A DNA stretch of 64,000 nucleotides from Burkholderiales bacterium. GTDB lineage: Bacteria > Pseudomonadota > Gammaproteobacteria > Burkholderiales > SG8-39. The position numbers and the translations under genes are program-made. This document shows positions 5,707 through 38,965 of this stretch, one piece after another (positions within the stretch are counted from its first letter, which is position 1; each line of letters opens with the position of its first letter). A model generated the notes under the pieces. That model searched no databases. It was not told the DNA's origin and worked only from the letters and a program-made list of their open reading frames with translations. The DNA lies in contig DASSQD010000069.1 in NCBI GenBank assembly GCA_035702665.1, positions 14,201-78,200 on the forward strand, given 5' to 3'.

Positions 5707-6549
5707 ATGAAACTCAGCCGGGAGCAGATCCAGCGCTTTGAGCAAGACGGATTTCTTTTCTTTCCGAGCCTCTTCCGACCCGAGGAAGTGAAGGTGCTCA
5801 CCGACGAGGTTCCGCGGCTCTACGCCCAGCGTCGGCCGGAGAACGTCCGCGAAAAGGGCGGCGACGCCGTACGGACGAATTTCGCGGCGCACTTGTACAG
5901 CCTCCCTTTCGCCAAGCTCGCGCGTCACCCGCGCATGGTCGAGCCGATCGTCCAGATCTTCGGCGAGGACGTGTACATGCACCAGTTCAAGATCAACGGC
6001 AAGATGGCGTTCGACGGTGACGTATGGCAGTGGCACCAGGACTACGGCACCTGGAAGAACGACGACTGGATGCCCGAAGCCCGCGCCATGAACATCGCGA
6101 TATTCCTCGACGAGGTCACCGAATTCAACGGACCTCTGATGTTCATCCCGGGAAGCCACGCGCGCGGCGTGCTAGACGCCCGGCACGATACTTCCACGAC
6201 CAGCTATCCCCTGTGGACGATCGACCACCGCACGATCGCGAAGCTCGTGGAGCGCGGCAGCATAGTCGCGCCGAAGGGGCCGGCCGGCTCGATGATCTTG
6301 TTCCACTCATGCCTGGTCCACGCTTCGACATCGAATCTTTCTCCCTGGAACCGTGTGAGCGTGTACTTGAGCCTGTGCGCGGTGTCGAACCATATCCGGC
6401 GCTTCAAACGTCCCGAGTACATCGCGCATCGGGACTTCGCCCCCATTCAGTGTCTGCCGGACGATTGCCTGCTGAAGGATTATCCGGTTCCGCTCCCCTG
6501 GAAAGACGGTACGCCCGCCGAAGCGCTTCAGCCTTCCGTCGCGGCGTAG
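5707..6549 (+). CDS. Fe(II)/2-oxoglutarate dioxygenase, PhyH family, ectoine-hydroxylase-related
   Basis: WQWHQDYGTWKNDDWMP resembles the EctD signature WHSDFETWHxEDG[ML]P. Has an HxD plus distal His (LVHAS) facial triad. Confidence 0.7.
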   Translation: MKLSREQIQRFEQDGFLFFPSLFRPEEVKVLTDEVPRLYAQRRPENVREKGGDAVRTNFAAHLYSLPFAKLARHPRMVEPIVQIFGEDVYMHQFKINGKMAFDGDVWQWHQDYGTWKNDDWMPEARAMNIAIFLDEVTEFNGPLMFIPGSHARGVLDARHDTSTTSYPLWTIDHRTIAKLVERGSIVAPKGPAGSMILFHSCLVHASTSNLSPWNRVSVYLSLCAVSNHIRRFKRPEYIAHRDFAPIQCLPDDCLLKDYPVPLPWKDGTPAEALQPSVAA

Positions 6550-6552
6550 TCC

Positions 6553-7926
6553 GTGAACCTGCACGCTAAACTGCAGGAGCGCGAAGCGCAGGGGAGACCA
6601 CTGCGCGTCGGGGTCATCGGGGCGGGCAAATTCGCGGCGATGTATCTCGCGCAGACGCCCCGCACCCCGGGCGTGCACGTTGCCGGCATCGCCGACCTCT
6701 CGCCCGCGGGGGTGCGTACCAACCTCGCCCGCGTGGGATGGAGGCCGGAGAGCTGGGCTGCCGCGTCTCTGGACGCTGCGCTGAAGGAGCGGCGCACGCA
6801 TGTGTCGGACGACTGGGAAGCGCTGGTCTCCCATCCTCACATCGACATCGTGATCGAGGCGACCGGGAATCCGGTGGCGGCCGTCAGGCATGCGCTTGCG
6901 GCTTTTCGTAACCGCAAGCACGTCATCATGGTCACCGTGGAGGCCGACGCAGTCTGCGGTCCGCTGCTTGCCCGAAGAGCGCGCGACGCCGGAGTGGTGT
7001 ACAGCCTCGCGTATGGTGATCAGCCGGCGATCATCTGCGATCTGGTCGATTGGGCGCGCGCCGCCGGTTTTCCCGTCGTCGCCGCAGGGCGTGGCCACAA
7101 GTGGCTTCCTCATTTCGCGCAATCGACGCCCGAGACAGTGTGGCAGCACTACGGGTTGACGCCGGAGCAGGCGCGTATCGGCGGCCTGAATCCGAAAATG
7201 TTCAACTCGTTCCTGGACGGCTCGAAACCCGCGATCGAATGCACCGCGGTATGCAATGCGACCGGGCTGACGCCGGCCCCGGAAGGCCTGACGTACCCGA
7301 GCGCGTCGATCGACGGGCTTCCCGGCCTCATGCGGCCGCGATCGGAGGGAGGGTGCCTGCACCACAAGGGCCAGGTCGAGGTGGTGTCCTCGTTGGAGCG
7401 CGACGGAGGGGCGATCGCCTACGACATTCGCTTCGGCGTTTGGGTAGTATTCGAGGGAGAATCGGACTATATCCGCCGCTGCTTCACGGAATATGGTGTT
7501 CGCACCGACCCCTCCGGCCGCTATGCGTGCATGTACAAGCGTTGGCATCTTATCGGCCTGGAAGTCGGAGTTTCCGTGGCCTCCGTGGGGGTGAGGGGGG
7601 AGGCCACTGGCTGCCCGACCGGCTTTCGCGCAGACGCCGTGGCAAGCGCCAAGCGTGACCTCGTGGCAGGGGAATTGCTTGACGGTGAAGGGGGTTACAC
7701 GGTGGTCGGGAGGCTGATGCCGGCGCCTGATTCGCTCCGCCTGGGGGCCCTGCCCCTGGGCCTTGCGCACCAAGCTAGGCTGGTGAATCCCGTGAGGGCC
7801 GGCGCGCCGGTGCTATGGAGCGACGTGGCAATCGACGCATCCAGCGACGCCGTCAGGTTACGGCGCGAAATGGAGGTCGCGTTCGCGGCACCGCGGAAAA
7901 ATCCCGCGCATGACAGCGTGGTATGA
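6553..7926 (+). CDS. NAD(P)-binding oxidoreductase with C-terminal SAF domain (COG4091-like, homoserine-dehydrogenase-like)
   Basis: Rossmann N-terminus LRVGVIGAGKFAAMY, 457 aa. GTG start lies 3 nt after the dioxygenase stop. Confidence 0.55.
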   Translation: MNLHAKLQEREAQGRPLRVGVIGAGKFAAMYLAQTPRTPGVHVAGIADLSPAGVRTNLARVGWRPESWAAASLDAALKERRTHVSDDWEALVSHPHIDIVIEATGNPVAAVRHALAAFRNRKHVIMVTVEADAVCGPLLARRARDAGVVYSLAYGDQPAIICDLVDWARAAGFPVVAAGRGHKWLPHFAQSTPETVWQHYGLTPEQARIGGLNPKMFNSFLDGSKPAIECTAVCNATGLTPAPEGLTYPSASIDGLPGLMRPRSEGGCLHHKGQVEVVSSLERDGGAIAYDIRFGVWVVFEGESDYIRRCFTEYGVRTDPSGRYACMYKRWHLIGLEVGVSVASVGVRGEATGCPTGFRADAVASAKRDLVAGELLDGEGGYTVVGRLMPAPDSLRLGALPLGLAHQARLVNPVRAGAPVLWSDVAIDASSDAVRLRREMEVAFAAPRKNPAHDSVV

Positions 7927-8042
7927 CGGAAACATAACGATTTGGAATTCCTCGCCATTTCGAAGCAAATATAGTGTAATGCGAAGTTCGGGGAGGGGAG
8001 CTGGCCGGAGGTCGCCGGCTCCAGTTCCGGGGCAGGGAAATC

Positions 8043-9152
8043 ATGAAAACCACCACATCCAGACCGCTGACGCTTGTCCACGATTCGGTCGAGGCCAAAC
8101 TTGCGCCTCTAAAGATCCTGGTCATTGACGACCAGTCGACCGGGCGCATCGTCCTCAGCGAGATCATGCGGGGCTTGGACGCGAGTCTCGAGGTCACCAC
8201 GTTCGCCGATCCGCTCGAGGCCATCGAGTTCGCGCGCAGGCATCCGGTGGACATGGTGCTCACCGACTACAAGATGCCCAGCCTGGACGGAATCGAGGTG
8301 ATCCGCCGGCTGCGCCGCATTTTCGGCTATGAAGACGTTCCCATCGTCTGTATCACGGTCGTCAACGATCGCGAGGTCAGGTATCGTGCCCTGGAAGCCG
8401 GAGCGACCGATTTCCTCATTCGGCCCATCGATCGGCTGGAATGCGGCGCGCGCTGCCGCAATCTCCTGAGCCTGCGCCGCCACGAGATCCTGAAGAAGAA
8501 CCGCACCCGTATTCTCGAGCAGAAGATCGACGAGGCGACCCGCGAGTTGCGCCGGCGCGAAGTCGAGACCTTGTTCCGGCTCGCCAAGGCGGCCGAGCAG
8601 CGCGACAAGGTGACCGGGATGCACTTGGTGCGCATGGCCAAGTATTCGGCTCTCATCGCCAAGGGCGTAGGTCTGTCGGCGGCCGAGCAGGACGCGATCG
8701 AGCTCGCAGCGCCGATGCACGACATCGGCAAAATCGGGATTCCCGACCGCATCCTCCAGAATCCGGGTAGGCTCGACGGTCACGATCTGCGGGTCATGCA
8801 ATCGCACGCGCGCATCGGCTATGACATGCTCAAGGACAGCTCGTCGGGCTATCTGCAAATGGCCGCCGTGATCGCGCTCGGTCATCACGAGAAGTACGAC
8901 GGCAGCGGCTATCCGACCGGTCTCAGAGGCGAGCATATCCCGCTGGAGGCGCGAATCGTCGCGATCGCGGATGTCTATGATGCCCTGACCTCGGTGCGCC
9001 CCTACAAGCCGGCGTGGCCGGTCGAGGAGGCGCTCGCGTACATGGACGAGCACGCCGGTCGCCACTTCGATCCGAAGCTCGTCGAGATTCTCGCGCGCGA
9101 ACGCGAGGAGGTTCTTTCCATCGGCGAGCGATTCGCCGACCAGGTCGAATAG
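8043..9152 (+). CDS. rpfG: response regulator with HD-GYP c-di-GMP phosphodiesterase domain (RpfG-type)
   Basis: REC domain (ILVIDDQ..DMVLTDYKMPSLDG) followed by HD-GYP (MHDIGKIGIPD..HHEKYDGSGYPTGL). Confidence 0.85.
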   Translation: MKTTTSRPLTLVHDSVEAKLAPLKILVIDDQSTGRIVLSEIMRGLDASLEVTTFADPLEAIEFARRHPVDMVLTDYKMPSLDGIEVIRRLRRIFGYEDVPIVCITVVNDREVRYRALEAGATDFLIRPIDRLECGARCRNLLSLRRHEILKKNRTRILEQKIDEATRELRRREVETLFRLAKAAEQRDKVTGMHLVRMAKYSALIAKGVGLSAAEQDAIELAAPMHDIGKIGIPDRILQNPGRLDGHDLRVMQSHARIGYDMLKDSSSGYLQMAAVIALGHHEKYDGSGYPTGLRGEHIPLEARIVAIADVYDALTSVRPYKPAWPVEEALAYMDEHAGRHFDPKLVEILAREREEVLSIGERFADQVE

Positions 9153-9166
9153 CCGGGAACCGGCCC

Positions 9167-11674
9167 ATGGCGGAATCGCTCTTCGCGCGTCTGCGGAGCC
9201 GCTTCATCAGCCAGAGTGACACCGAACTCGAGCAGGCGAAGCTGCGCCTGGGCGTCGGGCTGGTGCTCTTCCTCTACCTGCTGCCGCACGTTCTGGACGA
9301 GCGTGGGCCGAACTTGCTGCTTTTCACGGCGATGGCCTGCTACCTCGCGCTGTGCGTGACGGTCTTCGCCTGGATCTACGCCTCGCCCGCGGCTTCTGCA
9401 GCGCGTCGCGTCTTCGCAGCGTTCGTGGACATCGGCTCGACGTCGGCGTTCATGTATTACCTGGGCGAATCCGGGGCGGTCCTGTACACCTTCTACCTGT
9501 TGATCATGTTCGGCCACGGCTTCCGCTACGGAAAGCCCTATCTGTACAACGCCCTGGGACTGAGTCTCCTCGGCTTCGGACTGGTCCTCTATTACAGTGC
9601 GTATTGGATCGAGAATCGCACGCTGGGGCTCGGTCTTCTCCTCGGCATGATCCTGCTGGCGCTGTGGGTGGGAAAGATGGTGACCCAGTTGTTCGATTCG
9701 CTGCGGCGGGAGGAGGCCGCGAACCAGGCGAAACGCAGATTCCTGTCGACCGTCAGCCACGAGATGCGCACGCCGCTGAACGCGATCATCGGCATGAACG
9801 ATCTGCTGCGCGACACGCCCCTGAATGCGGAGCAGACGGAGATGGTCAAGGCGATGCACGAGGCATCGCACTCCATGTTGAAGCTGATCGAGGACGTCCT
9901 AGACATCTCGAAGATCGAGGCCGGCAAGGTCAACATCGAGGAGACCGACTTCGATCTTCACAGCCTCATCAACGGCACCGCGGTGGTGCTCGGTCCGCAA
10001 GCCGAGATCCGCGGCTTGCAGTTTCGGGCGCACGTGATGCCGGAGGTCCCGCATGCCTTACGAGGCGATCCCTACCATCTGCGCCAGGTGCTCTACAACC
10101 TGATCGGCAACGGCATCAAGTTCACCCAAGCGGGCAGTGTCACGCTTACGGTCTCGAGCCTGGGTGAGAGCGAGCACGCGGTCCGCCTGAGATTCGCCAT
10201 CGAAGACACGGGCATCGGCATCGCCCCCGACGCGCAGGACCGGATCTTCGAGAGCTTTACGCAGGCGGACGAATCGACCACGCGCCGCTACGGCGGCACT
10301 GGACTCGGAACCACGATCTCGAAGCAGCTGGTCGAGATGATGGGCGGCCAGATAGGATTGCAGAGCACGTTGGGCAAGGGCAGCACGTTCTGGTTCGAGC
10401 TTCAGCTCAAGAAGCAGGTCGTGGGTCAGGTTCCGGAGGCCACCTTCCGGCTGAACGACATTCGCATCATGCTCCTTGGCTTCGCCGAAACCGAGTTGCG
10501 GGTACTGGAGCACGACCTCGCGACTTGGGGAGCGCGTACCGGGCGCGAGGCGGGACTGGAGGCGGCCGGGGCGCGGCTCGCTGAAGCGCAGTCGCTCGGG
10601 CATCCCTACCACCTCGTCCTGGTTCGCGAAGCCGAGGAAATCGATCCGGCACGGATCGTCGCCCGGCTGCAGAGCGTGCGGGGACAGAAGCATCCGCCGC
10701 TCGTGCTCTGCACGCGCGGAGTGTCCCCCGATCGCAGCAGCGAAGCCCTGGCCGGCGGCTTCGTGGCGGTGCTCGAGATGCCGTTCAAGAAGCGGCTCCT
10801 GTTCAACGTCATCCACTCCGCCACGGCCATTCAGGAGAGCCAGGAAGGCGTCATCTCGCTCAGCGACTACTACGCTGCGCGCGACGCCAACAAGCGCCGC
10901 TACCAGATACTGGTGGCGGAGGACAATGCGGTCAATCAGCGCGTCATCCTGGGGATACTCGAGCGCGCCGGGCACCGCGTCAAGGTCGTGGGGGACGGGG
11001 AGCAGGCATTGGATGTGCTGGAGAACGAACGCTTCGATGTGGTCATCATGGATCTGAACATGCCGGAGCTCGGCGGACTGGACGCCGCCCGGGCCTACCG
11101 CTTCATGGATCCGGAGGCCGTGCACGTTCCTATCATCATGCTGTCCGCGGACGTCACGGCGGAGGCGCGAAAGGAATGCGAGGAAGCCGGGATCGACGCG
11201 TTCCTGTCCAAGCCGGTGGAGGCTCGCCGGCTGCTCGACACCATCGCCAGCCTGATCGCCAAGCGCGCAAGCGATCGGGAGGCCGCGGCCGACAGCGCCG
11301 GGGAAGTCGAGGCGATGGTCGTGAACCCGGCGGCGTTGACCGAGCTCGAGCTGATCGGTTCCGGCAGCACCTTCATGCCGGAGCTGGTCAACGGATTCAT
11401 CCAGGACGGCGAGGCGCTGCTCAGGCAGATGGAAGCGGCTATCGCCGCGAAGCAGTACGACACGCTCAAGGACCTGGTGCACGCGATGAAGGGCTCGGCA
11501 GTGACCCTGGGCGCCGATCAGCTGTGCAAGACCTGCGTTGGAATCAACGCGCAGACGAGCGCCGAGTTGGAGGCGAACGGACCCAGGGTGCTGAAGCTCG
11601 TACGCGAGCATTTCCTGCAGGCGCGCACTTCGCTCCTGGAGTATCTCAAGCAAAGCCAAAGCGCGGCGCGCTAG
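9167..11674 (+). CDS. rpfC: hybrid sensor histidine kinase RpfC-type (multi-TM input, HisKA, HATPase, REC, HPt)
   Basis: TM input region with FYLLIMFGHGFRYGKPYLY (RpfC-like motif). H-box STVSHEMRTPLN, REC DVVIMDLNMPELGG, HPt HAMKGSAVTLGA. ATG 9167 chosen; the 9014 extension overlaps rpfG. Confidence 0.85.
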   Translation: MAESLFARLRSRFISQSDTELEQAKLRLGVGLVLFLYLLPHVLDERGPNLLLFTAMACYLALCVTVFAWIYASPAASAARRVFAAFVDIGSTSAFMYYLGESGAVLYTFYLLIMFGHGFRYGKPYLYNALGLSLLGFGLVLYYSAYWIENRTLGLGLLLGMILLALWVGKMVTQLFDSLRREEAANQAKRRFLSTVSHEMRTPLNAIIGMNDLLRDTPLNAEQTEMVKAMHEASHSMLKLIEDVLDISKIEAGKVNIEETDFDLHSLINGTAVVLGPQAEIRGLQFRAHVMPEVPHALRGDPYHLRQVLYNLIGNGIKFTQAGSVTLTVSSLGESEHAVRLRFAIEDTGIGIAPDAQDRIFESFTQADESTTRRYGGTGLGTTISKQLVEMMGGQIGLQSTLGKGSTFWFELQLKKQVVGQVPEATFRLNDIRIMLLGFAETELRVLEHDLATWGARTGREAGLEAAGARLAEAQSLGHPYHLVLVREAEEIDPARIVARLQSVRGQKHPPLVLCTRGVSPDRSSEALAGGFVAVLEMPFKKRLLFNVIHSATAIQESQEGVISLSDYYAARDANKRRYQILVAEDNAVNQRVILGILERAGHRVKVVGDGEQALDVLENERFDVVIMDLNMPELGGLDAARAYRFMDPEAVHVPIIMLSADVTAEARKECEEAGIDAFLSKPVEARRLLDTIASLIAKRASDREAAADSAGEVEAMVVNPAALTELELIGSGSTFMPELVNGFIQDGEALLRQMEAAIAAKQYDTLKDLVHAMKGSAVTLGADQLCKTCVGINAQTSAELEANGPRVLKLVREHFLQARTSLLEYLKQSQSAAR

Positions 11675-11696
11675 CGCGCGCAAGGCCCGTCAGTTA

Positions 11697-11960
11697 ATGA
11701 TCGATCCAGCGCTGCGCGACCAGGTAATCCGCCGCCTCCTTGCCGCGTCCGATGCCAAAGTCGCCGCTAAGGACGTCGCCGACGCGACCTCGCTCCGCGA
11801 CGACCTCGACATCAGCTCCTTGATTCTCATCACCCTGGCCTCCGAGTTGGAGGACGCCTTGCGCATCGACTTCGAGGACGAGGAGCTCAGTCGCATCCGG
11901 ACGATAGGCGATCTGTTCGAGGCGATCGAGAACAGCCAGCGGCGGTCACGGTCGGCGTAA
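11697..11960 (+). CDS. acyl carrier protein, divergent (locus-specific)
   Basis: 87 aa and acidic. The Ser-containing helix-II motif is DDLDISSLILITLASELEDAL, where canonical ACPs have DSL. Second ACP in the window. Confidence 0.7.
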   Translation: MIDPALRDQVIRRLLAASDAKVAAKDVADATSLRDDLDISSLILITLASELEDALRIDFEDEELSRIRTIGDLFEAIENSQRRSRSA

Positions 11961-11974
11961 CGCGGTTCGAATCG

Positions 11975-13225
11975 ATGGCATCTCGGCGCGTGGCGATCAC
12001 CGGAGTGGGCATGATTTCGTGCCTCGGGCACGAATACGCCCAGGTCGTGAACGCCCTGCAAAGGGGCGCGAGCGGCGTCCGCGCCATGCCGGAATGGGGA
12101 CGCCTGGGCCTGAAGAGCTTGGTGGCGGGCGCGATCTCGGATGTCGACTCAAAGCTGGAACGCACGCCGATTCCCAAGAAGCTGCTTCCCGTGATGTCGG
12201 AAGCGTCCAAGTACTGCTGCATTGCGTCCCTGGACGCGGTCAGGGACTCCGGCCTTTCCGAATCCGACGTTCAATCCGACCGGACCGCGTGCATCGTCGG
12301 CACGGGAATCGGAAGCGTCGAGTCGATCTACGCTGGAGGGCGGCACGTGTATTCCGGCGAGATCGGCAAGGTCAGCCCCTTCGTCGTCCTGAGGGGCATG
12401 GCGAGCTCGTCGAGCGCGGCGGTCGCGAACCTGCTCAAGGTCCACGGACGCAGCTACTCGATCAGTTCGGCGTGCTCGACTTCCTCCCACAGCATCGGTA
12501 CGGCGTACGAGCTCATCCGCCACGGTCTCGTCGACCGCGCCGTGGCGGGCGGGGGAGAGGAAGTGCACCCGCTCATCAGCGCGGGCTTCCAGGCGCTGCG
12601 GTTCGCCCTGTCATCCAAGTACAACGACGAACCGCAGCGGGCGTCGCGCCCGTACGATCGCGACCGCGACGGGTTCGTTATAGGCGGCGGCGCAGGGATC
12701 GTCGTTCTGGAAGCGCTGGATCTCGCTCTTGCCAGAGGCGCGCGTCCGCGCGCCGAGATCATCGGATTCGGCACCAGCTCGGACGGCTTCGACATGGTGA
12801 TGCCGGAGCCGACGGGCACTCACGCCGCGAAATGCATGTTGAACGCCATCCAGGACGGCGGTATCGGTCCGGGGGAAGTCGGCGCCGTCAAGACCCACGG
12901 TACGTCGACGACGAAGGGCGACCTCGCAGAAGTGATCGCGATGAAAGCGGTGTTCGACGGACGGCTGCCCCCGTTCTCGTCGACAAAATCCATGACCGGC
13001 CATCCGCTGGGGGCGGCCGGCGCGCTCGAGACGATTTTCTGCGTGGCCATGCTGGAGAACGGATTCATCGCGCCGTCGATCAACATCGAAAACCTCGATC
13101 CCGACTTTGAGGGACTGCCTATCGTGAGCGCGGCCAGAGGGGTCGAGTTGAACACTATTCTTTCGAACAGTTTCGGCTTCGGCGGGACCAACGCCAGCCT
13201 TCTGCTGAAGGCGTTTCCAGGTTGA
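11975..13225 (+). CDS. beta-ketoacyl-ACP synthase I/II family (Cys-His-His)
   Basis: SSACSTSSHSIG (Cys), KTHGTSTTKGD (His), SMTGHPLGAAG (His), C-terminal [14 protein letters not shown]. Paralog of fabF at 39232. Confidence 0.88.
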   Translation: MASRRVAITGVGMISCLGHEYAQVVNALQRGASGVRAMPEWGRLGLKSLVAGAISDVDSKLERTPIPKKLLPVMSEASKYCCIASLDAVRDSGLSESDVQSDRTACIVGTGIGSVESIYAGGRHVYSGEIGKVSPFVVLRGMASSSSAAVANLLKVHGRSYSISSACSTSSHSIGTAYELIRHGLVDRAVAGGGEEVHPLISAGFQALRFALSSKYNDEPQRASRPYDRDRDGFVIGGGAGIVVLEALDLALARGARPRAEIIGFGTSSDGFDMVMPEPTGTHAAKCMLNAIQDGGIGPGEVGAVKTHGTSTTKGDLAEVIAMKAVFDGRLPPFSSTKSMTGHPLGAAGALETIFCVAMLENGFIAPSINIENLDPDFEGLPIVSAARGVELNTILSNSFGFGGTNASLLLKAFPG

Positions 13226-13348
13226 GGTGCGAACTCGCAGGGCCGGGCCCGGATCCGACCATGGGAGAAAGTGCTGCCGGGGCGCATCTGAACGCACCGG
13301 TCAAGACGGACCAGATCCGCCCCGGCAGGCCGCGGAATCGCGGCGAAG

Positions 13349-13383
13349 GCCGGTCCCCCTCGACGATCGGTCGGGGGACCGGC
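13349..13383. terminator. GC-rich stem-loop between convergent KAS and rpfF genes (possible bidirectional terminator)
   Basis: Perfect 11-bp inverted repeat GCCGGTCCCCC (13349-13359) / GGGGGACCGGC (13373-13383) with a 13-nt loop. No U-tract on either strand. Confidence 0.45.
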
Positions 13384-13395
13384 TCAAGGTCGTGC

Positions 13396-14319
13396 TTAGG
13401 CCATTGCGAAGCGAAGCTCGCCCGCCCGTTCGTCGAGAGCAGGGCTTTCGGTGCGCCGGATTTGCGAGCGCCCGAGGCGGCTCATCAGCTTAAGGTCCTT
13501 CTCCTCGACACGCAGCGCCGCGTCAACCCAGACGTTGGCGATGTTGCGCAGCTCGTCGTAGGTGATTGGGTTGAGGTGTCGCCGGCATTCGAGCATCGCC
13601 TGCACGCCGTTGCGCCGCCGCTCGTTGTTGCGGATGTAAGACCGCACCGCGGACTCTCCGTCGCCGTCTTCGGCGATGACGTCCACGACGCCCATCTCGT
13701 GGAGCTGGGCGGCCGAGTAGACGCGCCCGGACAGGATCATCTCCTCGGCGCGCTTCGTCCCGACGCGCCGCGCGAGCAGGCTGTAGGCGCCGTTGCCGGG
13801 AAACAGGTTGAAGAGGATTTCCGGCAGCCCCATCTGCGAGCGGCGCTCGGCGATGATCACGCTCGAGGCGAGCGCGGTTTCAAAGCCGCCGCCCAGTGCT
13901 TCTCCCTGCACCAGCGAAATCGTAGTGATAGGGCTGTTGTAGTTGCAGAGCCTGGGGTACATGTTGTCCACGCACAGCTTGGCGTAACGCGCAAGAGTGT
14001 CGCGATCTCCCGACCTGATGAGCTGCACCAGGCTCGAGAGATTTCCGCCGAGACTGAAAATGCCTTCGACCCTGGACGCGCCCACGTAGTAGTGGATCTG
14101 GCGCAATTCCCCCTGGTGCAGCACGCGGCCTCCCGAGGACTCGATCGCGCTGTCGTGGGCGCGCAGCTCTTCGAGCATGGCCAGGTTGAAGCACGGCGCG
14201 CCGAGAGGCTTCATGTACGTCCAGGTGGCCGCGAGCTCGGGATCGAAGCGGACCTCGATCTGCCGGTATTGCCTTTGAAACATCCCCTCTATAGCTCCAA
14301 AATCGACCGGTGCGTTCAT
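13396..14319 (-). CDS. rpfF: DSF synthase-like enoyl-CoA hydratase/crotonase (RpfF family)
   Basis: Aligns from memory with Xanthomonas RpfF at LGGNLSSLVQLIRSGDR, VQGEALGGGFETAL, MGLPEILFNLFPGNGAYS and WVDAALRVEEKDLKLMSRLGRSQ. AAGGGA Shine-Dalgarno lies before ATG 14319. Confidence 0.85.
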   Translation of the reverse strand: MNAPVDFGAIEGMFQRQYRQIEVRFDPELAATWTYMKPLGAPCFNLAMLEELRAHDSAIESSGGRVLHQGELRQIHYYVGASRVEGIFSLGGNLSSLVQLIRSGDRDTLARYAKLCVDNMYPRLCNYNSPITTISLVQGEALGGGFETALASSVIIAERRSQMGLPEILFNLFPGNGAYSLLARRVGTKRAEEMILSGRVYSAAQLHEMGVVDVIAEDGDGESAVRSYIRNNERRRNGVQAMLECRRHLNPITYDELRNIANVWVDAALRVEEKDLKLMSRLGRSQIRRTESPALDERAGELRFAMA

Positions 14320-14416
14320 CGTTTTCCCTTTCGTTGGTGTGTTGAAGATACTGATTGTGGAAGAAAAGCTGTTTTGCGCAGACTATACTCCCAATCGAAT
14401 GCTGACAAGGGAGGCG

Positions 14417-14441
14417 TATTCCATTGTCCTATTCCACTGTC
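14417..14441. repeat. tandem direct repeat TATTCCAYTGTC x2 in the rpfF/cyclase divergent intergenic region (possible regulator site)
   Basis: TATTCCATTGTC at 14417-14428 and TATTCCACTGTC at 14430-14441, a 13-bp register. Confidence 0.4.
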
Positions 14442-14546
14442 ATGGCGACCGGCGCACAGCCATAGCCCCGGTGAACGCGTGAAAATTTGGCACCCCGTCA
14501 GGGCGGGGCGGGTCCCGCTCGAGGGCGATGCAGAGACGTTCGCACG

Positions 14547-16190
14547 ATGACGAACCTGAAGACGCGCGCCCGCATACTCGCCCTCGTCGTCCTCGCGGCG
14601 CTGCCAGCACTGGTTCTGACCGTCTACAGCGCGCTCGAGCGTCGTGAGACGGAAGAAAGGCAGGCACGCGCCGAGCTCGTGCGCCTGGTAAGGCTGGCTG
14701 CGATGCAGCAATGGCAGGTCGTGGAGAGCGCCCGGCAGATGATGGCCGCATCGCTGCCTATCCTCGTCACGCTGGTGGACGACGGGCGGCGCTGCACGGA
14801 GTACTTCGGGAACTTGCTCGCGCAGAACCGTGACAACTATCACGCGATGGGCCTGTTCGATGCGAGCGGCAACCTGCTCTGCAACGCGAAGACTTGGCGG
14901 GCAAAGGTGTACAGCGGCGACCGTCTCTACTTCAGGCTGGCCAAGGAAACGGGTCGATTCGCCGTCGGCGAATATCAGATCGGTCGCGTGACGGGCCAAG
15001 CGGGGATCAATTTCGGCTACCCGGTCAAGGACGCCGGCAGCAAGGTCCGCGCCGTAGCCTTCGCCGGGCTCGACCTCAAGGACCTCGCGCGAATGGCCGA
15101 GGCGACGCCGCTGCCGCCCGACGGCATCCTGAGCGTGATCGACGTGAAGGGGACGATCCTCTCGCGCAAGCCCGCCCTGAACGAGCGCATCGGCGAGAAG
15201 CTGTGGAATCCCCAGGTGATCGAGTCGATACTCGCCGGGAGCGAGGGCGTGCTCGAAGTCAAGGGCGAGGACGGCGTCAACTGGCTGCTCGCCCACCAGG
15301 TCATCTATAAGAACCCCGACGGCGCCTTTCCGCTGCGAGTCCTGATCACGGTGCCGCTGAGCCAGGTTTTCGCCGAGGCGAATCGGGCGCTGGTTCGCGA
15401 CCTGCTCGGGATCTTGCTGGCTACTCTGTTCCTTCTCGTCGCCGCCTGGTTCGGCGCCGAGCTGTTCATGCTGCGGAAGTTCAGGGCCCTGCTCGGCGCG
15501 GCAGAACGCATGCGCGGCGGCGACCTGAATGCGCGCACCGGCATCGAGTACGGAAAGGAAGAGCTCGGCCAGCTCGCGCACGCCTTCGACGACATGGCGG
15601 GAGCACTCCAGCTGCGCGAGCAGAGGCTTCAGGAGCAGGCGATATCGGACCCGCTCACCGGTCTGTACAACCGCCGCTACCTCAACGAGTTCCTCCCGCG
15701 CGAACTGGCGCGGTCGGGCCGCAACAAGACGCCTGTCGCGGTGATACTGCTCGACTTGGACAGGTTCAAAGGGGTGAACGATTCGTTCGGGCACGAGGCG
15801 GGCGACCTCGTCCTGAGCGCCGTCGCGAACCTGCTGAAAGGGAAAGTACGGGGCAGCGACATCGCCTGCCGCTACGGCGGCGAGGAATTCGCCCTGGTGC
15901 TGCCCGAGACCGGCCTCGAGCCGGCAGCGAGACGCGCCGAGGACATACGCGTCGCCATCTCCGCGCTCGATCTCAAGTATGCGGGAAGATACTTCGGCAG
16001 GATGACGGCGTCGATCGGGATCGCTCTGTTCCCGGATCACTCGCGGGACGCCGACGGCCTGTTGCGCGTCGCCGACATCGCGCTCTATGCCGCCAAAGGC
16101 GCAGGCCGCGACCGGGTTGTCGTAGCACACGGGGCCGGGTCCGATGCTGCAGAGCGAGTCGATTCAGGCTCGGCCGGCGCGCGACGATGA
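14547..16190 (+). CDS. sensor diguanylate cyclase (TM, Cache-like periplasmic domain, HAMP, GGDEF)
   Basis: N-terminal TM ILALVVLAALPALVLTVY and a second TM before the HAMP domain. Active-site GGEEF, with an RGSD (RxxD I-site) 5 residues upstream. ATG 14547 chosen. Confidence 0.88.
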   Translation: MTNLKTRARILALVVLAALPALVLTVYSALERRETEERQARAELVRLVRLAAMQQWQVVESARQMMAASLPILVTLVDDGRRCTEYFGNLLAQNRDNYHAMGLFDASGNLLCNAKTWRAKVYSGDRLYFRLAKETGRFAVGEYQIGRVTGQAGINFGYPVKDAGSKVRAVAFAGLDLKDLARMAEATPLPPDGILSVIDVKGTILSRKPALNERIGEKLWNPQVIESILAGSEGVLEVKGEDGVNWLLAHQVIYKNPDGAFPLRVLITVPLSQVFAEANRALVRDLLGILLATLFLLVAAWFGAELFMLRKFRALLGAAERMRGGDLNARTGIEYGKEELGQLAHAFDDMAGALQLREQRLQEQAISDPLTGLYNRRYLNEFLPRELARSGRNKTPVAVILLDLDRFKGVNDSFGHEAGDLVLSAVANLLKGKVRGSDIACRYGGEEFALVLPETGLEPAARRAEDIRVAISALDLKYAGRYFGRMTASIGIALFPDHSRDADGLLRVADIALYAAKGAGRDRVVVAHGAGSDAAERVDSGSAGARR

Positions 16191-16195: not shown

Positions 16196-16271
16196 TGGCT
16201 CCCCGACCAGGGCTCGAACCTGGGACCTGCGGATTAACAGTCCGTCGCTCTACCAGCTGAGCTATCGGGGA
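16196..16271 (-). tRNA. tRNA-Asn (GTT)
   Basis: Reverse complement is TCCCCGATAGCTCAGCTGGTAGAGCGACGGACTGTTAATCCGCAGGTCCCAGGTTCGAGCCCTGGTCGGGGAGCCA. Cloverleaf is consistent, anticodon loop is CTGTTAA, CCA is encoded. Confidence 0.95.
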
Positions 16272-17415: not shown

Positions 17416-18120
17416 ATGGACCCGATTGAAGATCTCGTCGCGGCAAACCGGATTCTCGCCGAGCACGGCGTCATCGACGCCTACGGCCACGTGAGCGTGC
17501 GCTCGGCGAGCGACCCGAAACGCTACCTGCTGTCCCGCTCGATCGCGCCCGAGCTGGTGACGCGCGGCGACATCATCGAATACGACCTGGACAGCAACGC
17601 GATCGACGCCCGGGGGCGAGAGTCGGTGCGCGAGCGGTTCATCCACGGCGAGATCTACAAGGCGCGACCCGACGTGAACGCGGTCGTCCACAATCATTCT
17701 CCGTCGGTCGTGCCCTTCAGCGTCACAACGGTCCCCATGCGGCCGCTGTTCCACATGGCTGCCTTCGTCGGCGACGGCGTCCCGAATTTCGAGATCCGCG
17801 ACGCCGAGAAGGGCACCGATCTCCTGGTGAAGACCCCGTACCTGGGCCAGGCCCTGGCGAAGACGCTCGGCAAGAGCCCGGCGGCGCTCATGCGCGGGCA
17901 CGGCTCGGTGACCGTCGGCGAGACCCTTCCCCGCGCGGTAGGGCGCAGCATCTATCTCGAGCAGAGCGCCCGCATGCAGCTGCAGGCGCTCGCGATCGCG
18001 GGGCCCGGAGGCAGGATCGTCTATCTCGACGACAGCGAAGTCCGCGCTTCGGTCCCCGGGCAGGACTACAACCGTGCCTGGCCGATGTGGCGGGCCAAGG
18101 CGCTCGCCGGCCTCAAGTGA
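17416..18120 (+). CDS. class II aldolase/adducin-domain protein
   Basis: 234 aa, with GHVSVR..HGEIY..VVHNHSP..LMRGHGSVTVG as in the class II aldolase fold. Confidence 0.75.
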   Translation: MDPIEDLVAANRILAEHGVIDAYGHVSVRSASDPKRYLLSRSIAPELVTRGDIIEYDLDSNAIDARGRESVRERFIHGEIYKARPDVNAVVHNHSPSVVPFSVTTVPMRPLFHMAAFVGDGVPNFEIRDAEKGTDLLVKTPYLGQALAKTLGKSPAALMRGHGSVTVGETLPRAVGRSIYLEQSARMQLQALAIAGPGGRIVYLDDSEVRASVPGQDYNRAWPMWRAKALAGLK

Positions 18121-19292
18121 TCTTCCAGCGCCTTGCCGACGGCCTCGCCGCCCTGCGCGGCGCGGGCCTCATGCGGCATCGCTTGGTCCGTGAAAGCGCG
18201 CAGGGGCCGCGCGTCCGCGTGGGCGGGCGCGAATATCTCGCCTTCTGCAGCAACGACTATCTCGGCCTCGCGAACCATCCGCGCGTCGTGGAGGCGGCGG
18301 TCGATGCGGTCTTGCGCCACGGGGTCGGCCAAGGCGCCTCGCATCTGCTCGGTGGTCACAGCGCTCTGCACGAGCGGCTCGAGTCGGCGCTCGCGGAATT
18401 CGTGCAGATGCCGCGAGCGCTGCTCTTCTCCAGCGGATACCAGGCGAACATCGGCGCCGTCACGGCTCTCGCGGGTCCTGAGGACGCGGTGTTCTCGGAT
18501 GCGCTCAACCACGCTTCGCTGATCGACGGCGTGCGCTTGTCGCGTGCCCGGGTCGTGCGCTATCCCCACCGCGACGTCGCGTTCCTCGAGGAGGCGCTCG
18601 CCTCGTCCGCGGGCGGGACCAAGCTGATCGTCACCGATGCCGTGTTCAGCATGGACGGGGATATCGCGCCCATTCCGGCGCTGCTCGATCTGTGCGAGCG
18701 CCACGACGCGCTGCTGCTCGTCGACGATGCGCACGGCTTCGGAGTGCTGGGTCCCGAGGGGCGCGGCTCGCTGGCCCACTTCGCGGTGCGCTCGCCGCGT
18801 GTCGCCTACGTCGGGACCCTGGGCAAGGCGGCGGGTGTGTCGGGCGCGTTCGTCGCCGGCGCCGCCGACATCGTGGAGACCGTGCTGCAGCGGGCGCGAA
18901 CCTACGTCTACACCACGGCCTCGCCGGCGATGCTCGCCGCCGCGGTCGAGGCGAGCCTGCAGCTGATCCGCAAGGAGGAATGGCGGCGCGAACGCCTGCG
19001 GGCTCTCACCGCGTCGCTGAAGCAGGCACTTCGGGACAGCGACGCCGCACCGACTCCCTCCGAAACCCCGATCCAGCCCCTAATCCTGGGAACGAACGCC
19101 AGGGCGCTGGGCGCGAGCGCGGTGCTGCGCGAGCGCGGCATCCTCGTGCCGGCGATTCGCCCGCCGACGGTGCCCGAGGGCACGGCGCGCCTCCGGATCT
19201 CGCTGTCCGCGGCGCACAGCGAGCAGGATGTTGCGGACCTCGTGGCCGCCTTGCGCGAGGCGTGCCCGAGCGGCGCCGAGGCGCACGCCTAG
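18117..19292 (+). CDS. bioF: 8-amino-7-oxononanoate synthase
   Basis: YLAFCSNDYLGLANHP..VDDAHGFGVLG..GTLGKA (PLP lysine). GTG 18117 overlaps the aldolase TGA. Confidence 0.9.
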   Translation: MIFQRLADGLAALRGAGLMRHRLVRESAQGPRVRVGGREYLAFCSNDYLGLANHPRVVEAAVDAVLRHGVGQGASHLLGGHSALHERLESALAEFVQMPRALLFSSGYQANIGAVTALAGPEDAVFSDALNHASLIDGVRLSRARVVRYPHRDVAFLEEALASSAGGTKLIVTDAVFSMDGDIAPIPALLDLCERHDALLLVDDAHGFGVLGPEGRGSLAHFAVRSPRVAYVGTLGKAAGVSGAFVAGAADIVETVLQRARTYVYTTASPAMLAAAVEASLQLIRKEEWRRERLRALTASLKQALRDSDAAPTPSETPIQPLILGTNARALGASAVLRERGILVPAIRPPTVPEGTARLRISLSAAHSEQDVADLVAALREACPSGAEAHA

Positions 19293-35229: not shown

Positions 35230-36255
35230 ATGAAGACCACCGTAGCCATAGATTGCATGGGCGGCGATCACGGCCCGCACGTCACGGTGCCGGCGGCGCT
35301 CAATTTCCTCAAGTCCAGTCCCGACGTGGACATCGTGCTGGTGGGATTGCGCGACGCCGTCGAAGCCGAGCTCAAGGCGCGCGGCGCGAAAGCCGGCACG
35401 CGCCTGCGGGTTCGCCACGCGAGCGAGGTCGTCGCCATGGATGAATCTCCCGCGCTCGCGCTGCGCAGCAAGAAGGACTCCTCGATCCGCGTCGCGGTCG
35501 ACCTCGTCAAGAGCGGCGAGGCGCACGCCTGCGTCAGCGCGGGCAATACCGGCGCGTTGATGGCGATTTCGCGCTTCGTGCTCAAGACGCTGCCTGGCAT
35601 CGACCGTCCAGCGATCATCTCTGCTCTGCCCAATCTTCGGGGAAGCACCTACGTGCTCGACCTCGGCGCGAACGTCGATTGCGCGCCCGAGCACCTGCTT
35701 CAGTTCGCCATCATGGGGGCGACGCTGGTCCAGGCGGTCGAACACAAGGAGCGACCCAGCGTCGGCCTGCTCAACATCGGCGAGGAGGACATCAAGGGCA
35801 ACGAAGTGGTGAAGCGGGCGGGCGAGCTGCTGCGCGACAGCGGGCTCAACTTCATCGGCAATATCGAGGGAGACGGCATCTACAAGGGCGAAGCCGACGT
35901 GGTCGTGTGCGACGGCTTCGTCGGCAACGTCATGCTCAAGGCGTCCGAGGGCATCGCGCAGATGGTGCGCAGCTTCCTCCGCGAGGAGTTCATGCGCAGC
36001 CCGCTCACGAAGCTCGCAGGCGTCGTGGTGATGCCGGTGCTGTTCGCATTTCGCAAGCGCCTCGATCCGCGGCGCTTCAACGGAGCGACGCTCCTGGGGT
36101 TGCGGGGGATCGTGGTGAAGAGCCACGGTTCGGCCGACGTGCTCGGATTCGGCCGCGCGATCGAGCGCGCCGCGGAGGAAGTGCGGAACGAGGTTCTGCA
36201 TCGGCTGATGCTCCGCTTTGGATCGCCCGAGACGGCCGAGGCGGCGAGCTCGTGA
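35230..36255 (+). CDS. plsX: phosphate acyltransferase PlsX
   Basis: [31 protein letters not shown]. Confidence 0.96.
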
Positions 36256-37211
36256 TCTGGTCGCGCATCGTCGGAACGGGAAGCTATCTGCCGCCCAAGG
36301 TCGTCACCAACGACGACCTCGCCGCGCGCATGGACACCTCCGACGAGTGGATCCGCACGCGCACCGGCATCCGGCAGCGTCATATAGCCGACCCTTCGCA
36401 AGCGTCGAGCGACCTCGCCACCGAGGCGAGCCGCGCGGCGCTCGCCGCTGCCGGCGTTCCCGTCGGGGAGATCGACCTCATCATCGTCGCCACCGCGACG
36501 CCCGACTACATCTTTCCGAGCACGGCCTGTCTCGTCCAGGCGAAGCTCGGCGCCGCGGGCTGCGCGGCGTTCGACATCCAGGCCGTGTGCAGCGGCTTCG
36601 TCTACGCGCTCGTCATCGCCGACAAGCTCGTCCGTTCAGGGCAGCATCGCTGCGCGCTCGTGATCGGCAGCGAGGTGTATTCGCGCATTCTCGACTGGAA
36701 CGACCGCGGCACGGCGGTGCTGTTCGGCGACGGCGCGGGCGCCGTCGTCCTGAAGGCGGATGCGAAGCCCGGAATACTCGGAAGCGTGCTGCACGCCGAC
36801 GGCTCCTACGCGAACATCCTTTCCGTGCCGGGCAACGTGTGCGGCGGCAAGATCGTGGGATCGCCGTTCCTGCAGATGGACGGACAGGCGGTCTTCAAGT
36901 TCGCCGTGAAGGTTCTCGACGAGGCGGCCCGTGAGACGCTGGCGCTGTGCGGGCTTACCGTGGCGGATGTCGACTGGCTCATTCCGCACCAGGCCAACGT
37001 GCGCATCCTGGAGGCGACCGCGAAGAGGCTCGGCCTGGACCGCTCCAAGCTCGTCGTCACGGTGGACCGGCACGCCAACACTTCGGCCGCATCGGTGCCG
37101 CTCGCGCTGGACCTGGCGATTCGGGACGGACGCATCAAGCCGGGACACAGGGTGATGCTCCAGGGCGTCGGCGGGGGATTCACCTGGGGCGCCGCGCTGG
37201 TGGAGATGTGA
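36252..37211 (+). CDS. fabH: beta-ketoacyl-ACP synthase III
   Basis: [49 protein letters not shown] 36252 overlaps the plsX TGA. Confidence 0.95.
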
Positions 37212-38146
37212 TGAAGCTCGCGATGGTTTTTCCCGGGCAAGGATCGCAATCGGTGGGCATGCTCGCCGGCTACGGCGACGCGCCCGCGATCCGCGAAACG
37301 CTCGCCGAGGCGTCGGACATCCTGAGGCAGGACGTCGGCAAGCTCATGGCCGAAGGTCCAGCCGAAGATCTCAACAGCACCGTCAACACCCAGCCTGTAA
37401 TGGTGATTGCGGGCATCTGCGCGTGGCGGCTGTGGCGCGAGCTCGGCGGCGCGGAGCCCGCGATGGCCGCGGGTCACAGCCTCGGCGAGTACACCGCACT
37501 GGTCGCGGCGGGCGCGATCTCGTTCTCCGACGCGCTGCCCCTGGTGCGCCTGCGCGCGCAGGCGATGCAGGAGGCGGTTCCGCACGGCGTGGGGGCGATG
37601 GCGGCCATCCTGGGACTGAAAGACGATGACGTGCGTGCCGCATGCGATGATTCTGCTCTGGGGCAGATTTGCGAACCGGTGAACTGGAACGCTCCCGCCC
37701 AGGTAGTCATCGCGGGGCACGCCGACGCGGTAAGGCGTGCGATGGACGCCTCAAAGGCTCTCGGCGCGAAGCGGGCGATCCCGCTTCCGGTAAGCGCACC
37801 GTTTCACTCATCACTCATGAAGCCGGCTGCGGCACAGCTGCGGGAGGCTCTCTCCAAGATAACCGTCAAGCCTCCGCGCATTCCCGTCATACACAATGTC
37901 GATGCGAAGAGCCGCACCGATCCGGAGAGCATACGAGAGGCCCTGGTGACCCAGGCGGATCACCCCGTGCTCTGGGTGGAATGCGTGAAAGAGATGGCGG
38001 CGAGGGGCGCAACCCACGTGTTCGAGTGCGGGCCCGGAAAGGTGCTCGCGCCGCTCACCAAGCGCATCGCCGACGGGCTCGCCGGCCTCGCGCTCTCGGA
38101 CCGAGCGAGCGTGGAGTCGGGCGTGCAACTCTCCAAGGGGGCGTGA
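37211..38146 (+). CDS. fabD: malonyl-CoA-ACP transacylase
   Basis: FPGQGSQSVGM..GHSLGEYTALV..SAPFHS. Confidence 0.96.
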   Translation: MKLAMVFPGQGSQSVGMLAGYGDAPAIRETLAEASDILRQDVGKLMAEGPAEDLNSTVNTQPVMVIAGICAWRLWRELGGAEPAMAAGHSLGEYTALVAAGAISFSDALPLVRLRAQAMQEAVPHGVGAMAAILGLKDDDVRAACDDSALGQICEPVNWNAPAQVVIAGHADAVRRAMDASKALGAKRAIPLPVSAPFHSSLMKPAAAQLREALSKITVKPPRIPVIHNVDAKSRTDPESIREALVTQADHPVLWVECVKEMAARGATHVFECGPGKVLAPLTKRIADGLAGLALSDRASVESGVQLSKGA

Positions 38147-38889
38147 TGGATCTTCAAGGCCAGCGCGCTCTGGTGACCGGCGCCTCGCGCGGGATCGGCA
38201 AGGCCGTCGCGCTGATGCTGGGCGGACGCGGCGCGACCGTGGTCGGCTCCGCGACCAGCGCGGCGGGCGCGCAGTCGATCACCGACTATCTTCGCGCGGC
38301 GGGGGCGCAGGGCCGAGGCGTCCAGCTCGACGTCAGGGTCGAGGCGAACGTGGAGTCGGTAGTGGCCGAGTTCGAAAAGGAGTACGGCGCAGTGTCGATC
38401 CTCGTCAACAACGCCGGCATCACGCAGGACAACCTCGCGATGCGCATGAAGGAAGCCGAGTGGGACGCGGTGATCGATACCAACCTGAAGTCGGTGTTTC
38501 GCCTGAGCAAGGCCGTGCTGCGCGGCATGCTCAAGGCGCGCGCGGGAAGGATCATCAACATCACGTCGGTGGTCGGTTCGAGCGGCAACGCCGGCCAGAT
38601 CAACTACGCCGCGGCGAAGGCCGGCATCGGCGGGATGACGCGCTCGCTGGCCCGCGAGATCGGCAGCCGCGGCGTCACGGTCAACTGCGTCGCGCCGGGT
38701 TTCATCGACACGGACATGACGCGGGCCCTGTCGGACGAGCAGCGGGCGGCGCTGCTGCTGCAGATTCCACTCGGCCGCCTCGGAAATCCGGAGGACGTGG
38801 CGGCGGTCGTGGCCTTCCTCGCCTCGCCCCAGGCCGCCTACATCACGGGCGCGACGCTGCATGTCAACGGCGGCATGTACATGGGTTGA
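38146..38889 (+). CDS. fabG: 3-oxoacyl-ACP reductase
   Basis: ALVTGASRGIGKA..NNAG..YAAAKAG..HVNGGMYM. Confidence 0.96.
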   Translation: MDLQGQRALVTGASRGIGKAVALMLGGRGATVVGSATSAAGAQSITDYLRAAGAQGRGVQLDVRVEANVESVVAEFEKEYGAVSILVNNAGITQDNLAMRMKEAEWDAVIDTNLKSVFRLSKAVLRGMLKARAGRIINITSVVGSSGNAGQINYAAAKAGIGGMTRSLAREIGSRGVTVNCVAPGFIDTDMTRALSDEQRAALLLQIPLGRLGNPEDVAAVVAFLASPQAAYITGATLHVNGGMYMG

Positions 38890-38965
38890 AAAATGACAAT
38901 GCGATTCTGCTACAATGCGCACCTTCGAATTTCGAGCGCATCCAACAAGGGGGAAGGAGCCCGCA

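Follow-up and report, generated by a model that had tools for sequence, protein, structure and literature searches.

A 64,000-nucleotide stretch of Burkholderiales bacterium DNA (contig DASSQD010000069.1; hereafter the window) carries, between positions 8043 and 16190, a gene cluster that by domain content and homology is a cell–cell signalling locus of the Rpf type, associated with diffusible signal factor (DSF). It encodes an RpfF-family crotonase, a hybrid sensor kinase of RpfC architecture and an RpfG-type regulator that joins a receiver (REC) domain to an HD-GYP domain. Appended to the sensor operon are two further genes, one for an acyl carrier protein (ACP) and one for a FabB-like beta-ketoacyl-ACP synthase (KAS). 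Comparative evidence indicates that this ACP–KAS pair is under purifying selection, is conserved in many related rpf loci and is, so far and at the genomic level, a novel constituent of such loci, confined to one uncultured clade. We regard it as an evenly balanced proposition that the pair builds a 3-oxoacyl-ACP on a private carrier, which FabG reduces and from which RpfF releases a cis-2-enoic acid signal. The sequence-only reading of the window had described five of the genes; their coordinates and strands all match the list of open reading frames (ORFs), Pfam and NCBIfam scans bear out their domain content, and each window string that it quoted is present.

The crotonase gene (13396–14319, minus strand) encodes a protein of 307 amino acids with the crotonase-superfamily fold (Pfam ECH_1, 1.4e-22; ECH_2, 1.6e-10). 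Its best matches in the Protein Data Bank (PDB) are the RpfF structures 7zq7, 3m6m (from Xanthomonas campestris pv. campestris, Xcc), 6dgn and 5fus, with E values of 3e-51 to 7e-49, and the next-best crotonase follows at 1.8e-14. On the NCBIfam model NF006452 it scores 351 bits (cut-off 177), compared with 385 for the RpfF of 6dgn, 396 for Xcc RpfF, 374 for the Thiobacillus homologue and 378 for that of Leptospirillum. The enzyme is 39.6% identical to Xcc RpfF, 37.5% to the RpfF of 6dgn, 49% to the Leptospirillum homologue and 50% to the Thiobacillus denitrificans homologue, and close homologues carry the JGI annotation ‘DSF synthase’. The sequence-only reading had claimed a parallel with Xanthomonas RpfF, and the Xanthomonas strings that it quoted (LGGDLALFCQLIREGDR, VQGNALGGGFEAAL and MGLPEVLFDLFPGMGAYS) all occur in the 3m6m alignment. 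In that alignment, E147 and E167 of the window protein coincide with the catalytic residues E141 and E161 of Xcc RpfF, and this glutamate pair is invariant in all 102 collected family members. On the NCBIfam RpfF equivalog model NF053515 the window crotonase reaches 206 bits, below the cut-off of 550. Because the bona fide, structurally solved RpfF of 6dgn scores just 182 on the same model, NF053515 is Xanthomonad-specific, and the low score excludes Xanthomonad orthology, not DSF-synthase function. A placement outside the RpfF clade, considered on account of this score, was rejected, since the solved RpfF falls short by more; the separation from other crotonases in the PDB and the NF006452 score place the protein inside the clade. 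We conclude that the crotonase is, by these comparisons, an RpfF-family member with both catalytic glutamates. The reaction established for RpfF and BCAM0581 is dehydration of 3-hydroxyacyl-ACP to cis-2-enoyl-ACP followed by hydrolysis (PMC4504480, PMC4542539). The window enzyme is a putative DSF synthase of this dehydratase/thioesterase kind, which would convert 3-hydroxyacyl-ACP to the free cis-2-enoic acid.

The rpfG-type gene (8043–9152, plus strand) encodes a response regulator in which a REC domain (Response_reg, 5.8e-22) precedes an HD-GYP domain of the cyclic di-GMP (c-di-GMP) phosphodiesterase type (HD_5, 1.3e-36; HD, 7.7e-21), with the motifs MHDIGK and HHEKYDGSGYP in place. Conservation of RpfG far exceeds that of the adjoining gene products: it is 95–98% identical across relatives whose RpfF is 75–88% identical. 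The rpfC-type gene (9167–11674, plus strand) encodes a hybrid kinase with HisKA (1.7e-22), HATPase_c (2.6e-29), Response_reg (3.3e-25) and Hpt (8.5e-10) domains, all four above the Pfam cut-offs. Its N-terminal 175 residues are hydrophobic and form a multi-transmembrane input region, in which a crude hydropathy scan picks out three strong segments and several weaker ones. In Xcc RpfC, the sensor that binds DSF is reported to be an N-terminal stretch of 22 residues, followed by five transmembrane helices; R15, D17, S18, E19 and Q22 are essential for binding, and the substitution S18T is tolerated (PMC5391125). In the window kinase, the residues S15-Q16-S17-D18-T19-E20-L21-E22-Q23-A24 directly precede the first hydrophobic segment. 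With an offset of one residue, D18-T19-E20 and Q23 fit D17-S18-E19 and Q22 of Xcc RpfC and Arg15 is unmatched, the alignment being derived from the residue numbers given in PMC5391125. This fit is suggestive of a kinase that keeps most of the DSF-contact motif (D/T/E/Q). The kinase gene, 14 nt downstream of rpfG, faces a convergent rpfF. This topology, part of the earlier claim of an Rpf/DSF-type locus, is common to more than 60 related loci.

The ACP gene (11697–11960, plus strand, 87 amino acids) lies 22 nt after rpfC, and the KAS gene (11975–13225, plus strand, 416 amino acids) begins 14 nt after the ACP gene; both gaps look like operon spacing. The carrier is recognized by the Pfam PP-binding model (8.4e-8), and its best PDB matches are AcpM and other ACPs (E value of 6e-7). 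It remains under every NCBIfam ACP cut-off, the best score being 38.7 bits against a required 71, and is 27% identical to the window’s own AcpP. The carrier serine, Ser41, is invariant in 47 of 47 relatives. In helix II, the recognition helix, SSLILITLA replaces the DSLDTVELV of AcpP, with the loss of two acidic residues, a change that the clade shares. Judged by these features, the protein is an ACP, yet not AcpP. The KAS contains the N-terminal ketoacyl-synt domain (1.9e-38) and the C-terminal domain (1.7e-29). Its PDB matches to FabB (1e-103 to 1e-95) are stronger than those to FabF (about 1e-82), and its identity is 48.5% with Yersinia FabB and 37% with the product of the window’s fabF. 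It scores 430 on the NCBIfam FabB equivalog model, under the cut-off of 630. C167, H308, K338 and H343 are invariant in 45 of 45 relatives, and C167, H308 and H343 make up the Cys-His-His triad. These comparisons indicate an enzyme of FabB type rather than FabF type.

The two proteins are extra copies, because the window also encodes housekeeping acpP and fabF genes. These lie in a fatty-acid synthesis cluster, plsX-(fabH)-fabD-fabG-acpP-fabF (35230–40470, plus strand), whose NCBIfam scores are all above the cut-offs (plsX 357, fabD 336, fabG 407, acpP 149.5 and fabF 681 bits); acpP itself, at 38966–39208, encodes a protein 74% identical to Escherichia coli AcpP. No more than about 22 kb separates this cluster from the rpf genes. 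The assignment of the rpf-linked proteins as housekeeping FabB and AcpP was rejected on these grounds and because both miss the equivalog cut-offs, so the earlier view that they are additional to core fatty-acid synthesis (FAS) stands. Relative to the closest locus, L001, the ratio of non-synonymous to synonymous substitution (dN/dS) is 0.014 for RpfG, 0.07 for RpfC, 0.095 for RpfF, 0.09 for KAS and 0.15 for ACP. Invariant active-site residues in 45–47 relatives, together with the dN/dS values of 0.09–0.15, indicate that both the ACP and the KAS are functional.

A free-standing ACP, a ketosynthase (KS) and an enoyl-CoA hydratase (ECH) homologue are also the parts of polyketide beta-branching cassettes, which have nothing to do with DSF. 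The match is superficial and confined to this list of parts. Neither an HMG-CoA synthase nor a second ECH is found among the ORFs, no polyketide synthase (PKS) genes lie nearby, and the crotonase is assigned to the RpfF family by 35 orders of magnitude. The decarboxylating KS of beta-branching cassettes has serine in place of cysteine; the window enzyme keeps the catalytic Cys167. We therefore rejected a trans-acyltransferase PKS cassette of this kind as highly improbable, the missing HMG-CoA synthase and the retained cysteine being decisive.

To place the locus among its relatives, we used a genome scan seeded with the crotonase, which gave 80 loci that were mapped using the window proteins, and a metagenome scan seeded with the KAS, which gave 31 loci with KAS proteins 75–86% identical to that of the window. 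The convergent core of rpfF facing rpfC-rpfG is widespread, occurring in metagenome-assembled genomes of soil Burkholderiales, in Thiobacillus, Sulfuriferula and Thioalkalivibrio, in a Solemya symbiont and in various Alphaproteobacteria. In the crotonase-seeded scan, ACP–KAS is restricted to the closest clade, in which RpfF is at least 66% identical (L001–L004, L006–L009 and L012). A separate contig look-up added L089, which brings the genome loci with rpfF linkage to ten. In the KAS-seeded metagenome loci, genes for an ACP and an RpfC-like kinase stand upstream wherever upstream sequence exists, and a convergent rpfF follows in 22 of the 31. This gives 32 rpfF-linked ACP–KAS loci in all, on contigs of uncultured soil Burkholderiales type. 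Where enough sequence is available, rpfF adjoins ACP–KAS in 32 of 36 loci of the KAS clade, and chance adjacency of the pair and the rpf genes was rejected on this census. About 50 more distant rpf loci are without ACP–KAS. A neighbour-joining tree of RpfF, drawn without support values, places carriers across the base of the clade with non-carriers interleaved. This pattern suggests that the pair either was ancestral and has since been lost three or more times, or was gained repeatedly. Beyond an identity gap below the rpf-linked clade, the next KAS relatives (59–64% identity) belong to an acidobacterial operon of ACP, KAS, a FabA/ApeI-like dehydratase and a metallophosphoesterase. Those at 45–48% identity are ordinary FabB genes, and 33 of 44 such loci have a FabA active-site motif about 320 bp upstream. 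The window itself contains no FabA motif.

Compared with the Xanthomonas rpf system, the window locus has the same family of crotonase with both catalytic glutamates at 39.6% identity, the same domain order in a hybrid kinase with a multi-transmembrane input and apparently most DSF-contact residues, a REC plus HD-GYP regulator, and a sensor operon convergent with rpfF. Unlike the Xanthomonas system, it has neither an rpfB ligase gene nor rpfH, its gene order is rpfG-rpfC, its sensor operon ends in ACP and FabB-like KAS genes, and a GGDEF cyclase gene stands beside rpfF. The absence of rpfB/FadD had been noted in the sequence-only reading, and all ORFs between 5.7 and 19.3 kb indeed belong to other families; a scan of all frames of the 64-kb window for adenylate-forming signatures found none. 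Xanthomonas draws its precursors from the bulk FAS cycle, and the sole auxiliary FAS enzyme known to be tied to DSF there, FabG2 of Xcc, is unlinked and not essential (PMC4542539, PMC5941067). Clusters of rpfF, rpfC and rpfG have been noted in Thiobacillus, Methylobacillus and Leptospirillum (PMC4504480), and DSF-family compounds have been shown for Leptospirillum (PMC8357829). These are the nearest named relatives, with the same three-gene core and identities of 49–50% for RpfF, 39–41% for the RpfC-like kinase and 50–55% for RpfG, but they have no ACP–KAS between rpfF and rpfC, and the Leptospirillum cluster is unidirectional. The RpfF–RpfR systems of Burkholderia and Cronobacter (BDSF; PDB 5fus and 6dgn) use a synthase of the same NF006452 family, 37.5% identical to that of the window; their receptor is the cytoplasmic PAS-GGDEF-EAL protein RpfR instead of a membrane kinase with an HD-GYP partner, and there is no ACP or KAS there. 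In reviews, rpf clusters are made up of rpfF together with rpfC/rpfG or rpfR and, in some cases, rpfB and rpfH, and full-text searches of papers readable without a subscription found neither an ACP nor a KAS reported for any rpf locus. The pair is thus not an already characterised, common part of rpf loci; it is common in one uncultured lineage, and no named DSF system has it.

These observations lead to the following model for the pair. Ser41 of the ACP would be phosphopantetheinylated and the carrier loaded with malonate by housekeeping FabD. The KAS, through Cys167, His308 and His343, would draw on bulk acyl chains for a medium-chain primer and condense it with this malonyl-ACP to give a 3-oxoacyl thioester on the private carrier, which housekeeping FabG would reduce to the 3-hydroxyacyl form. 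RpfF would then use Glu147 and Glu167 to dehydrate it to a cis-2-enoyl thioester and hydrolyse the product to the free acid signal. RpfC would sense the acid with its N-terminal region, and a phosphorelay to RpfG would trigger c-di-GMP hydrolysis by the HD-GYP domain, with the neighbouring GGDEF cyclase supplying the opposing activity. In such a scheme the choice of the chain that serves as signal would be set by the private carrier, which would also shield bulk acyl-ACP from the promiscuous thioesterase of RpfF, a job done in Xanthomonas by the RpfB ligase: RpfB recycles the acids that RpfF releases from precursors of the FAS cycle (PMC4504480, PMC4542539). The shielding role fits the window because no adenylate-forming ligase is encoded there.

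The model draws support from the identity of the Rpf core, from the extra and functional status of the pair, from its operon-like spacing and from its linkage to rpfF in the 32 loci, and two further features of the related loci add to this. Linkage of ACP, KAS and rpfF persists after exchange of the sensing genes: in L091–L094, L097 and L098, a second kinase type (HK2), 32% identical to the window RpfC and with the same N-terminal motifs, replaces RpfC, and a divergent REC-only regulator without HD-GYP stands in for RpfG, with ACP–KAS–rpfF retained. The sensing pair was swapped in situ, as L094 keeps the flank of GGDEF, Bug-family, aldolase and bioF genes of the same chromosomal site. Furthermore, the position after rpfC, where ACP–KAS sits in the window, is used for lipid enzymes in 23 loci of a sister clade.

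Several observations weigh against the model. What ties ACP–KAS to RpfF is solely gene neighbourhood, and the 32 conserved loci are orthologous, not 32 independent events. ACP–KAS is cleanly absent from five close relatives (L010, L011, L013, L016 and L017), in which the rpfF–rpfC gap is only 50–220 bp and the core of rpfG-rpfC and rpfF is kept; three of them (L010, L011 and L016) share the upstream PhyH and DRL flank genes with the window. Since these relatives keep an intact core, an Rpf system can work without the pair, and bulk acyl-ACP is presumably open to RpfF of this clade as a substrate. The locus encodes no reductase, and recognition of the private ACP by FabD and FabG is assumed, for a carrier whose helix II has lost two acidic residues. 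Finally, four HK2–ACP–KAS cassettes (L087, L088, L106 and L115) have no adjacent rpfF; for L106 and L115, no rpfF was found within the 1.1–1.4 kb of sequence at hand. Because such cassettes exist, the gene neighbourhoods indicate that the oldest visible and most constant partner of ACP–KAS is the RpfC-like kinase, with rpfF as the usual but not universal third member. The earlier proposal of a private precursor-supply branch, possibly with a different signal molecule, thus stands in part: the extra ACP and KAS paralogues are conserved, under purifying selection and unreported, and it is set back by the close relatives that keep an intact core without the pair and by the rpfF-less cassettes.

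The rpfF-less cassettes consist of genes for an XRE regulator, a REC-only regulator, the HK2 kinase, the ACP and the KAS. Those of L088 (3975–8251) and L115 (5903–10215) stand beside type IV secretion system (T4SS) genes (TrbC/VirB3/VirB4), and that of L087 adjoins IS605-family genes. They branch basally in a neighbour-joining tree of the KAS, which has no support values. This placement and these neighbours suggest that the kinase–ACP–KAS unit is mobile. An ORF of 209 codons after the KAS gene in L087 looks like a non-coding translation without a Pfam hit and was ignored.

The same observations bear on the possibility that ACP–KAS has no functional link to the rpf genes and is a passenger between convergent genes, inherited vertically and serving an unrelated pathway. 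Membership of every rpfF-linked carrier in one orthologous locus of a single lineage, several clean losses of the pair and its occurrence without an adjacent rpfF are what a passenger would show. We nevertheless consider it quite unlikely: the spacing to rpfC is tight and operon-like, an RpfC-like kinase gene always precedes the pair, even on T4SS-linked cassettes and after exchange of the kinase type, purifying selection on the pair is similar to that on rpfF, and no other lipid-pathway genes accompany it.

Returning to the private-carrier model, a variant of it with a different role for the pair deserves weighing, namely that ACP and KAS tailor the signal instead of supplying its precursor. 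The FabB-like KAS and the ACP would then alter the product, for example by way of a 3-hydroxy-cis-5-enoyl thioester that yields a 2,5-dienoic, CDSF-like acid, or by chain extension, and the position after rpfC would be a plug-in site. FabB enzymes specialise in elongating cis-3-enoyl-ACP. The window KAS is of FabB and not FabF type, and its relatives point the same way. Its nearest outgroup, which provides the closest non-rpf relatives of the pair, is the Acidobacteriota (Thermoanaerobaculia) operon in L081–L086 (genes 7736–10664), with KAS 61–64% and ACP 41–42% identical and with the same ACP–KAS order and lengths; it differs in having a hot-dog dehydratase and no kinase, RpfG or RpfF. That operon encodes an ACP of 86 and a KAS of 415 amino acids, a FabA/ApeI-like dehydratase and a metallophosphoesterase, and aldehyde dehydrogenase genes flank it. 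The next group is the canonical fabA-fabB operon, with a FabB-type KAS 45–48% identical, the same Cys-His-His triad and a pairing with a 3-hydroxyacyl-ACP dehydratase; the window differs from it in that the partner is a crotonase (RpfF) and not the hot-dog-fold FabA, the ACP is private, the KAS falls below the FabB cut-off and the genes are embedded in a signalling operon. Also in line with tailoring, CDSF is a known natural 2,5-dienoic DSF signal (PMC4542539), oxidative lipid enzymes occupy the same position in sister rpf loci, and relatives without the pair keep the full Rpf core, as expected of an output modifier. However, neither the window nor the rpf-linked loci contain a FabA-type isomerase motif, and substrate specificity is not readable from sequence. 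We give tailoring a modest chance.

The contents of the slot after rpfC in other loci extend this picture. In the sister clade of 23 loci (RpfF 51–62% identical to that of the window; among L018–L049), it holds a heme-oxygenase-like diiron-family protein of 215–230 amino acids (PF14518, 1.2e-18; PDB 3dde, 5e-9), encoded on the same strand as rpfC and convergent with rpfF. Some of these slots add a membrane fatty-acid hydroxylase (PF04116) with an alpha/beta hydrolase, a Coq4-like protein or a PF10118 metal-dependent hydrolase; examples of slot genes are L021 6985–7656 (minus strand) and L024 9615–10553 (plus strand) and 10572–11483 (minus strand). The diiron-family protein may be another kind of DSF-locus accessory enzyme. 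Such contents would fit a slot for accessory enzymes of signal chemistry. Taken further, the post-rpfC position in soil Betaproteobacteria could be a modular plug-in slot that diversifies DSF signals, each slot type yielding its own signal (chain-extended, dienoic or oxidised) in place of the classical cis-2 acids, with the kinase–ACP–KAS unit also travelling on conjugative elements. We offer this tentatively, as possible rather than probable.

A further set of neighbours raises the possibility that ACP, KAS and crotonase form a lipid-building module, which would make a special unsaturated acyl chain for membrane or other lipids, with the Rpf two-component genes regulating it or merely adjoining it. 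In six loci (L012, 8955–9851; L091, L092, L097, L098 and L101), rpfF is immediately followed, on its own strand, by a PlsC-type acyltransferase gene (PF01553, 4.7e-23), which occupies the space between rpfF and KAS. In Xanthomonas oryzae, RpfF is reported to affect membrane integrity (PMC8659556). The window itself has no acyltransferase gene, the products of those RpfF-family enzymes that have been characterised are free acids, and the constant partners of the pair are a DSF-type sensor kinase, which appears to keep DSF-contact residues, and a c-di-GMP regulator. On balance a lipid-building role is unlikely.

Beyond the five genes of the sequence-only reading, the same range of positions takes in a sixth that it left undescribed. 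This gene (14487–16190, plus strand), divergent from rpfF, encodes a dCache-HAMP-GGDEF diguanylate cyclase (GGDEF, 1.6e-47; HAMP, 7.9e-9; dCache_1, 4e-8) with two transmembrane segments; its true start is likely the ATG at 14547. It stands beside rpfF in, for example, L001–L006, L011, L012, L091, L093–L094 and L100–L102 and is absent from L007, L008 and L103, and so is a frequent, inconstant neighbour of rpfF. A tRNA-Asn(GUU) gene at 16196–16271 (minus strand; found by ARAGORN, Rfam tRNA model 66.9 bits) marks the right edge of the locus. Between the convergent stop codons of KAS and rpfF lies a GC-rich inverted repeat (13350–13382, no strand assigned). The region 13335–13395 folds with −39.2 kcal/mol on the plus strand (z −4.2; none of 200 shuffles equals it) and −30.6 kcal/mol on the minus strand (z −2.6). 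The hairpin has no U tract and is a candidate bidirectional terminator. Promoter and terminator consensus scans of 7.8–16.4 kb gave hits no commoner than in shuffled sequence (2 versus 1.3 and 5 versus 4.7), so that this hairpin alone was conspicuous, and an Rfam scan found tRNAs only.

The upstream flank comprises kdsA, eno and genes for a PhyH-family dioxygenase and a DRL-type oxidoreductase. The last two (a PhyH-family Fe/2-oxoglutarate dioxygenase and the DRL-type oxidoreductase; 5707–7926, plus strand) are on the same strand as rpfG and end 117 nt before it; the two keep this place in most close relatives, carriers and non-carriers of ACP–KAS alike, and are missing in L012. The downstream flank, scanned as far as bioF, contains genes for a Bug-family binding protein and a class II aldolase, then bioF, with further biotin-cluster-like ORFs. 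In the region 17416–19292 (plus strand), the listed aldolase ORF runs to 18120 and overlaps by 34 nt with that of bioF, listed as starting at the GTG at 18087, and bioF is 76–79% identical among relatives. The GC content of 8–16 kb is 0.63–0.65, slightly under the 0.66–0.71 of the next 12 kb.

For every characterised DSF system, the prevailing view is that one promiscuous enzyme, RpfF, skims the signals off the general FAS pool and that their identity is set mostly by substrate supply (PMC4504480, PMC4542539). If the private line proposed here is real, it would be the first dedicated assembly line for the DSF signal class and would provide a genetic handle on the choice of chain length and unsaturation. 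It would also suggest how cells without RpfB avoid draining their acyl-ACP, and it would draw attention to abundant soil Burkholderiales outside culture as a source of signal chemistry still to be explored. The segment of ACP, KAS and rpfF is small (about 2.6 kb), which opens the idea to a direct test by heterologous expression, and for DSF specialists the locus is notable and readily testable. Should the broader notion of a modular slot hold, DSF signalling would have true biosynthetic gene clusters, and with them private dialects.

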